Assembly (NCBI GenBank): GCA_964016885.1
Contig: OZ024741.1
Coordinates: 78,864,001-78,928,000 of the forward strand
DNA length: 64,000 bases
Reading direction: 5' to 3'
From: Eledone cirrhosa
Lineage: Eukaryota
The position numbers and the translations under genes were made by a program. A model generated the notes under the pieces. It ran no database searches and was not told where the DNA came from. It saw nothing but the letters and a program-made list of their open reading frames with translations. This document shows positions 20,331 to 22,564 of the stretch, one piece after another; within the stretch, counting starts at the first letter, position 1; each line of letters opens with the position of its first letter.

Positions 20331-21780
20331 AGTAGATAGTGTACTGATCAAAATATATATATATACACTTACCATTCTCTTCTCCCCCCCCCCCCATTCT
20401 CCATCAGACTAGTTTACAATTATGATAAATTCAATCAAAGCACTACCAAGTCTAATGACCTATTTTCTCATATCCTACAAATATTACTACACCCTTGAAA
20501 AAGGTTTGCTAAACACACAAACCGAAACCGGTTAATGCCGCGGTCGGGATTTTACATCTCTCTCTCTCTCTCTCTCTCTCTCTCTCTCTCTCTCTCTCCC
20601 ACACACACACACCCTATATATATATATACCGCTTGACTAAGATTAAATTTACAGCGTAAAGCCATATTTTGATTCCTTTAAAATGGGAGTGAGATGAATA
20701 AGGCTAATTCAACTCTATACAAATGCTATGTATTGGAGCCAGATTGATACTAATGGCAATTTGCGTGTGATTCTTAGTTGTATGTATTCATTGTTTATAT
20801 AAAATGCTGACCGCTTGTTTTCACTTGCTACCGCTTCTTAAACAAATTCCACTCCTGCAAATCTAATAACAAAATTTATTCTAACTATATAATAAAAATT
20901 AATAATAACATTGTAAATAAATAACAGATAAGTAATGCTTTTACCTAAACCTACTTACTGCTACCCATTAGATAATCTCCATTCCTGCAAGTCGCATAAT
21001 AAATATTACTCTAACTCTATAAGAAAAATAGTTAATAACGTTGTAAATAGTAATGACGTAAGAAATATACCTCAACCTATAATTTTGCATCGGCAAAAAA
21101 GTCCATGTACAAAATGTTTTTTAATTTAATTGCTTGCTCTACGATTAGTGTTTTGATATGATGTTTATTCTTGAAATCATTTGAAATTGGAAAACTTTGT
21201 TCTTACTCACATTTTCCAGAAGATATGCGAGTGACAGGTATTATGTATGGTGTTGATAATTATTTCTAGTTGTTTATATATGCCTGCATCATTGTAACCG
21301 TTTTGAAACAGACGTAGAAATAAAAGAATGGATGTAAGTTGTTAACCTTGTCTTTTGTCATATATTGTGTGTGTGTACATACATACATACATATATATAT
21401 ATATATATATATATATATATATATATATATATATATATATATATATATATATATATATATATATATATATATATATATATATATATATATAAAAACAAAT
21501 AACGAAACGAAATTAAATTTCGTTTCGCTTCTAACTCACTTTTGTATGACTGACGCTTAAACAATTAAGTTAAAGTGTACATCTACATATGTATACGGAA
21601 GTATTAGTATGCATATAAATACACACATGTATACATATGTACATGTACTCAGCTTTTCACTAGACACTTTACAGTGAGTGTCAGCTAGTCTGTATGTAAC
21701 CACACAGGCGGACCGGGTTTTAGAGTCATACGAGTTTTCAAGGAAACACATTTCCTCTATTCTCTAGAGGGCCAGACAGG

Positions 21781-21825
21781 AATATTGGACTAGTTTCGAT
21801 GTTATTACATCTCATCAGCAATATT
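21781..21825 (-). ncRNA. Type I hammerhead ribozyme (inverted copy)
   Basis: Exact reverse complement of 22209-22253. Confidence 0.9.
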
Positions 21826-22208
21826 TACCCATCTTCCGGCTTCTCTGGAGAATTGTAAAAGCACATATTGTTATATGCTTTTTCTATGAAAATTAGTAGT
21901 GGGTAGACCAATTTGCATAGAACGTGAGTCATTGTACGCAGTGTATTTATATGCATACTAATATTTCCGTATACATATGTAGATGTACACTTTAACTTAA
22001 TTGTTTAAGCGTCAGTCATACAAAAGTGAGTTAGAAGCGAAACGAAATTTAATTTCGTTTCGTTATTTGTTTTTATCGTTTCCGCTGAACCGGTGCGTAC
22101 AATGACTCACGTTCTATGCAAATTGGTCTACCCACTACTAATTTTCATAGAAAAAGCATATAACAATATGTGCTTTTACAATTCTCCAGAGAAGCCGGAA
22201 GATGGGTA

Positions 22209-22253
22209 AATATTGCTGATGAGATGTAATAACATCGAAACTAGTCCAATATT
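22209..22253 (+). ncRNA. Type I hammerhead ribozyme, minimal helix III
   Basis: AATATTG-CTGATGA-GATG taataa CATC-GAAA-CTAG-TC^-CAATATT: 7-bp helix I, intact core, 4-bp helix II, palindromic helix III, GUC site. Confidence 0.93.
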
Positions 22254-22564
22254 CCTGTCTGGCCCTATGGAGAATAGAGGAAATGTGTTTCCTTGAAAAC
22301 TCGTATGACTCTAAAACCCGGTCCGCCTGTGTGGTTACATACAGACTAGCTGAGACTCACTGTAAAGTGTCTAGTGAAAAGCTGAGTACATGTACATATG
22401 TATACATGTGTATATTTATATGCATACTAATACTTCCGTATACATATGTAGATGTACACTTTAACTTAATTGTTTATATATATATATATATATATATATA
22501 TATATATATATATATATATATATATATATATATATATATATATATATATATATATATATATATA

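Follow-up and report, generated by a model that had tools for sequence, protein, structure and literature searches.

The window, i.e. the whole stretch of 64,000 nucleotides of Eledone cirrhosa DNA that was analysed, carries at positions 21489–22476 a fold-back element within a (TA)n target: (TA)n runs flank it on both sides (21392–21491 on the left, 22475–22564 on the right) and no target duplication is readable at this copy. The right arm (21941–22476, plus strand) runs from position 1 to 469 of a repeat unit and on to position 67; it thus comprises one full 469-nt unit (21941–22409, plus strand), which served as the basis of numbering, followed by a repeat of the first 67 nt of this unit (22410–22476, plus strand), and its outer end at unit 67 lies in what we term site B. 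The left arm (21489–21940, minus strand) runs from unit 154 via 469 to 136, ends on the outside at unit 136, which we call site A, and meets the right arm at a head-to-head inner joint (21940/21941) that is blunt in the window copy. The excess of the site A end over the site B end constitutes a tail (unit 68–136; 21489–21557, minus strand), the sequence of which includes a near-perfect 25-nt hairpin (22038–22062, plus strand); 17 nt (22077–22093, plus strand) are found in the right arm only. Self-alignment returned two inverted pairs, 21558–21940/22094–22476 (383 nt, 4 mismatches) and 21489–21624/21941–22076 (136 nt, 1 mismatch), together with the direct repeat 21941–22007/22410–22476 (67 nt, 2 mismatches, spacing 469), and the left arm, starting at 22094, is identical to the circularly read unit at 448 of 452 positions. 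The original prediction had described the arms as two circular permutations of one 469-nt hammerhead ribozyme monomer, with the start of the right arm recurring 469 nt further on and the left arm being the reverse complement of 452 of the 469 nt without 22077–22093, an arrangement that excludes a simple palindrome: the self-alignment agrees with this description throughout. It had also proposed a young insertion with an intact ribozyme, and here too the data are in line: the arms differ at only 4 of 452 positions, the similarity-picked sample of the family described below holds 126 rare differences in 74,246 nt, and the hammerhead core, identical in both arms, is intact.

The hammerhead is of type I and is present once on each strand, at 22200–22260 on the plus strand, where cleavage is predicted after 22246 (unit 306), and at 21774–21834 on the minus strand in the left arm, where cleavage is expected at the GUC with its C at 21788. 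It consists of the core CUGAUGA (22216–22222), a bulged stem I, a 5-bp stem II and the segment GAAAC-UA-GUC, with a minimal, self-complementary stem III (ACUAGU). Rfam Hammerhead_HH9 matches both arms with 32.5 bits (E ~7e-6), short of its gathering score of 52, and at gathering thresholds no Rfam match was obtained anywhere in the window; matches to microRNA families at lower scores were rejected as being due to hairpins only. The circular-fold stability of the unit corresponds to a z-score of -9.3 (40 shuffles), a value that includes several perfect hairpins and does not imply a circle.

Across the genome, the 29-nt hammerhead core has 1,498 exact matches (control: 0), a looser core pattern has 3,829 (control: 30) and catches other families too, and a similarity search with the unit gave at least 244 matches with 39 of 774 candidates scored. 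Hammerhead cores recur in successive units with a period of 469 nt, the copies are dispersed, the element carries neither an LTR nor a stop-free frame of at least 150 codons, and an open reading frame for a reverse transcriptase (RT) with GIY-YIG endonuclease is absent from the 469-nt unit. On these sequence features, the 469-nt repeat is a young, protein-free non-LTR retrozyme and the single window locus is an ordinary member of its family. It resembles the metazoan non-LTR retrozymes, as presented in the available text of PMC7229834 and 10.64898/2026.07.22.740005, in its tandem unit, which measures a few hundred nt, is non-coding and contains a single type I hammerhead whose self-complementary stem III is very short, in the dispersal of its monomers and multimers, and in occurring in a genome that also contains Penelope-like elements (PLEs).

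Two sets of copies were analysed: a similarity-picked sample (the window and 37 loci taken from the similarity list) and a position-picked sample (32 additional loci, drawn from the first 100 core matches along contig C1), both chosen for a full unit or an intact core and thus favouring long arms. Left out before counting were L031/L032 (a compound array), L078 (a duplicate of L077), L103 (empty) and L101/L102 (the interior of one array), and second elements were trimmed from L038, L080 and L085; the counts cover 68 loci. The compound array L031/L032 (G000:C4:303493600-303508000, ~14 kb) has outer ends A and B; one and the same inner joint occurs in it two times, with the switch running through the hairpin at unit 98–122, and this repeated joint is a duplication that took place after insertion. 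Alternating units in L069 are likewise a sign of DNA-level duplication, and L100–L102 (G000:C1:95621000-95647900 and beyond) form a satellite-like array of at least 26 kb that is 95% identical to the window unit.

Two arms were found at 49 of the 68 loci, head-to-head in all 49 cases, whilst the other 19 loci are one-armed (11 ending at site A, 8 at site B). The original prediction had proposed a test for start points scattered around a 469-nt circle, a pattern that was not borne out: the outer ends, which would represent the starts of reverse transcription, are fixed at two sites in 112 of 117 cases (57 at site A, 55 at site B, 5 elsewhere) and only the inner ends scatter. Site A spans unit 131–136, with 51 of its 57 ends at 136, and site B spans unit 61–68, the two sites lying ~70 nt apart. 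Each two-armed locus combines one end of either kind in 44 of 49 cases, A+A and B+B pairs were both absent and the remaining 5 loci have one end elsewhere; the chance of zero homotypic pairs among 44 is 0.5^44 = 6e-14. A+B pairs account for 25 of 27 two-armed loci in the similarity-picked sample and for 19 of 22 in the position-picked one. The circular permutation of the arms can hence be traced to two fixed starts combined with two random stops, and does not of itself show a circle.

Flanks other than pure (TA)n surround 21 of the 44 A+B loci, the remainder lying in pure (TA)n. Direct repeats of 12, 14, 16, 12, 13 (1 mismatch) and 13 nt bound six A+B copies with unique flanks; these target duplications of 12–16 nt are upper bounds, with 1–3 nt possibly derived from the element. 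Among the 21 loci examined with flanks other than pure (TA)n, one is without a duplication and most others are dominated by (TA)n. The family thus displays the PLE footprint of an inverted 5'-truncated copy, a one-sided tail and an AT-rich target with a short duplication. Three one-armed copies ending at site A (L042, L070, L095) exhibit, by eye, an inverted 6–10-nt piece of the site B end in the 5' flank, so that some copies counted as one-armed may in fact possess a minute second arm. It could be argued that such fold-backs are artefacts of assembly or the outcome of a purely DNA-level satellite rearrangement, given that fold-backs between (TA)n runs are error-prone in assembly, that the window copy is known from the assembly alone and that DNA-level duplication is present in L031/L032 and L069; however, the window arms differ from one another at 4 of 452 positions, the two-site rule recurs on many contigs and in three families, and target duplications surround the copies in unique sequence, which makes this explanation extremely improbable.

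Our main reading, to which we assign a probability of roughly 80%, is that two separate cDNAs were made by a borrowed Penelope-like RT/endonuclease, with either strand of a staggered (TA)n cut serving as the primer for one of them. That each strand would have primed its own cDNA is the simplest reading of the outer ends, where cDNAs would start, and of the target duplication that surrounds them, and the strict A+B pairing suggests that the two starts were coupled on one RNA. The enzyme, probably acting as an asymmetric pair on one RNA, would initiate synthesis at site A (unit 136) for one cDNA and at site B (unit 61–68) for its counterpart. Both cDNAs would extend towards the 5' side, past the ribozyme site, and stop at random; their 3' ends would be joined via 0–8 nt of microhomology or via a short filler, and fill-in would then leave a target duplication of about 12 nt. 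Some long arrays were reshaped afterwards by DNA recombination. LINE-1 twin priming also employs two target primers and yields an inversion with microhomology at the inner joint, with the second primer landing variably and the two parts showing no overlap; in the retrozyme, by contrast, neither start varies and the overlap between the arms extends across whole units.

The inner joints are all distinct (49 of 49) and are scattered round the unit, although a slight departure from uniformity is seen for inner ends where the arm exceeds one unit (Rayleigh p ~0.03). Microhomology of at least 2 nt is present at 19 of 29 filler-free joints, one of the 19 being an alignment artefact, as against 17% by chance (p 9e-9), and 20 of the 49 joints hold 1–39 nt assigned to neither arm, some of which probably stem from mismatches near the joint. 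How far one arm reaches is independent of the other in the 44 A+B loci (rho -0.18, p 0.23): the A arm is longer in 19 and the B arm in 25. A single cDNA that folds back or switches strand and then copies itself, be it by the self-priming on an antisense template to which head-to-head copies are ascribed in the accessible part of PMC3846280 or by the strand inversion of the original prediction, would account for the near-symmetric centres of some PLE insertions (window 22565–22929; L136, L140, L141) and for the 3 of 44 retrozyme loci with reaches within 30 nt of each other, yet this number is not enriched (1.7 by permutation, p 0.25) and the longer arm can be either one. In the window, moreover, the left arm, being without the 17 nt, cannot have templated the right arm, which in turn has no continuous 154→136 run, and a self-copying cDNA leaves the second fixed end without a reason. 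We regard this alternative as unlikely: two primings are preferred over the inversion of one cDNA because the reaches are independent and because the right arm has 17 extra nt. Of the mechanism proposed originally, reverse transcription of a circular or multimeric template is retained, as 99 of the 111 arms extend across the ribozyme site, whereas strand inversion of one cDNA is the worse fit. Purified PLE has been shown to cut and extend both strands and to start at two internal sites bounding the tail, with a dimer being predicted (PMC11167929). Our footprint data fit this in vitro system, and the self-priming proposal, in the form given in the excerpts of PMC3846280, fits the footprint less well.

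The crossings of the ribozyme site, 195 in all in samples that favour long arms, also bear on the template: stops at the ribozyme cut are not enriched (4 within 10 nt, 4.8 expected), and cut linear monomers are therefore unlikely templates. We slightly favour a self-cleaved, circularised monomer, at a little better than even odds, over an uncut multimer or a mix of both. The same twin priming could instead have used a transcript that came from a genomic tandem array and stayed linear and uncut, in which case no circle is needed, and we hold this to be a serious if less probable alternative. The variants speak in both directions: 26 rare variants, spread over 14 loci, are confined to some of the passes and the two arms of L047 carry T,C,C in matching register, as for a linear multimer, while L052 has zero variants across arms of 4.7 and 4.9 units and 20 rare variants are present in every pass at 8 loci, 6 of them across both arms, which argues against an uncut multimer. 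Variants in a subset of passes are impossible from one circle and thus require later DNA duplication or template switching; blocks of this kind can form after insertion, as the duplicated inner joint of L031/L032 illustrates, and later DNA duplication (as in L031/L032 and L069) could be their source. Possible donor arrays for an uncut multimer do exist (6.9 kb, about 14 kb, and 28 kb or more), but no inner joint recurs among the 49 loci. The minimal stem III predicts, by analogy with the retrozymes in the available portion of PMC7229834, weak cleavage of the monomer, and uncut RNA is the dominant PLE substrate in vitro (PMC11167929); on the other side, animal retrozymes are described in the same portion of PMC7229834 as yielding circular RNAs, with PLEs as the proposed partner. 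RNA-seq reads across the GUC junction are not diagnostic of a circle, because tandem genomic copies hold the same junction.

The pairing of ends extends beyond the 469-nt family. Among 10 loci of older subfamilies, 5 are clearly A+B and none is homotypic. A sister retrozyme of 465 nt (range about 465–510) with 61% identity has site A at the aligned position, and both of its ends could be called in 4 of 30 rows, all of them A+B; its copies (L161, L187–L216; 2,048 first-look candidates) exhibit a variable (TA)n tract within the unit. The sister family carries a shorter hairpin at the position equivalent to 22038–22062. As regards a putative start-signal hairpin following both sites, A and B, site A is enclosed by a GUGAG/CUCAC stem in single predicted folds of both families, but the joint alignment fold is weak (-4.9 kcal/mol). 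An autonomous Hydra-type PLE (3,531 nt, 784-codon frame) provides the third case: 16 loci, selected for two endonuclease matches, contain 15 fold-backs, every one of which pairs an end at 1759 with an end at 1842 (a single one of these ends was read by eye). As Pfam returned no match for the PLE proteins, the Hydra-type assignment rests on the motifs RW[K/R], DKT and CxCX5C given in the available part of PMC8557442. In L151–L153 (G000:C1:437198000-437214400) one arm holds more than 5 tandem autonomous units of 3.5 kb with 99.9–100% identity, possibly a rolling-circle product of the full-length element. L152 further shows by eye, at unit ~1650–1760, a type I hammerhead whose core is a U3-A8 variant (UUGAGAA...GAAAC...GUC), with a predicted cut ~16 nt upstream of site B, which standard CUGANGA searches miss. 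First-look candidates of the Hydra-type element number 66,776 in the genome, many with open frames of ~784 codons.

Several further elements lie in the window. A second fold-back (22565–22929) occupies the same (TA)n run and has the same design, with symmetric 151-nt arms around a centre of 1 nt, the left arm bearing a 62-nt tail; distant relatives are located at 41547–41706 of the window and in L036. A Hydra-type Penelope fold-back stump with a tail of ~80 nt (23002–24884) includes the endonuclease end of the open reading frame (23536–24084). We take 37777–38971 to be a Hydra-like coding fragment on both strands and 44761–46062 to be LINE-type RT fragments. On contig C1, at least 6 further hammerhead types were noted within the first 63 Mb (L154–L160, L162, L163), several of which end in (TA)n 30–140 nt past the cut. 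The tail and inversion of the 469-nt arms are the same as in PLE stumps, and such stumps adjoin the element in the window; the arms might therefore be stumps left by the terminal repeats of an autonomous Penelope element and not a retrozyme that propagates itself. We judge this very unlikely, however, as the unit closes on itself head-to-tail and is passed as often as about 15 times in an arm, 79 of the 111 arms are longer than one unit, and in two-armed loci each arm meets the other arm and never coding sequence. The unit shows no significant DNA similarity to the Hydra-type PLE and no significant match to a second PLE family (GPKF/DKG motifs) located beside the sister retrozyme, and a search for partners at ten other hammerhead loci returned the sister retrozyme only; with no partner among the two PLE families examined, the identity of the borrowed enzyme is deduced from the footprint.

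Both the retrozyme class and the inverted one-tailed shape are already published, as is apparent from the available text of PMC7229834, PMC8557442 and PMC3846280. Published retrozymes are treated in that text as head-to-tail tandems, whereas the copies described here are mostly head-to-head with fixed ends and target duplications; the words "inverted" and "target site" have 0 occurrences in PMC7229834. Circular RNA is shown there for published retrozymes, whereas the window family is known from DNA only. Mobilisation of animal retrozymes by PLEs is deduced in the accessible text of PMC7229834 and 10.64898/2026.07.22.740005 from co-occurrence and phylogeny. With the insertions of endonuclease-positive PLEs, in the excerpts of PMC3846280 and PMC8557442, the family shares the head-to-head inverted copy, the tail at one end, the (TA)n targets and the short target duplication. 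It differs from the PLEs of these excerpts in lacking an open reading frame, in that either arm can be a multimer, in a tail of ~70 nt as compared to 30–40 nt, and in a duplication of 12–16 nt (upper bounds) as compared to 8–10 bp in the Adineta PLE; the tail is moreover called optional there, whereas the retrozyme family follows a strict rule of one end of each kind. Anolis Poseidon in vitro likewise uses two internal starts that define a tail, has an AT-rich target and has both strands cut and extended, but it is autonomous and its strands showed no difference in start site (PMC11167929), and the main text of this report as available makes no mention of pairing of the two sites within one insertion. 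The available parts of PMC8557442 and PMC3846280 treat the way in which PLEs come to form tandem and inverted insertions, tailed on one side, as an unsettled question. In the literature searched, we found no statement of the one-A-one-B rule, of twin priming by PLEs or of such a footprint on retrozyme arrays, and the accessible part of PMC9977147 holds nothing further on the pairing rule or on PLE twin priming.

A more specific picture, which we put forward only tentatively and with somewhat more doubt than belief, is that a Penelope RT dimer, bound asymmetrically to one small self-cut circular ribozyme RNA, uses both strands of a single staggered cut to launch two rolling-circle cDNAs from paired fixed sites 70 nt apart, which are then fused head-to-head. 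If true, the tail and inverted repeat of all endonuclease-bearing Penelope elements would be an obligatory reaction product, and the 469-nt RNA would be a minimal substrate for this Penelope reaction. The countable rule (44 A+B, 0 homotypic), repeated by an autonomous PLE of the same genome, favours twin priming over self-priming and predicts a different start site for each target strand within one in vitro product; the 469-nt RNA would be a handy substrate both for this strand-start test and for the question of circle versus multimer. Whereas PLE mobilisation of animal retrozymes has been proposed on the grounds of co-occurrence and phylogeny, the family offers insertion ends and is useful as a footprint of the mechanism.
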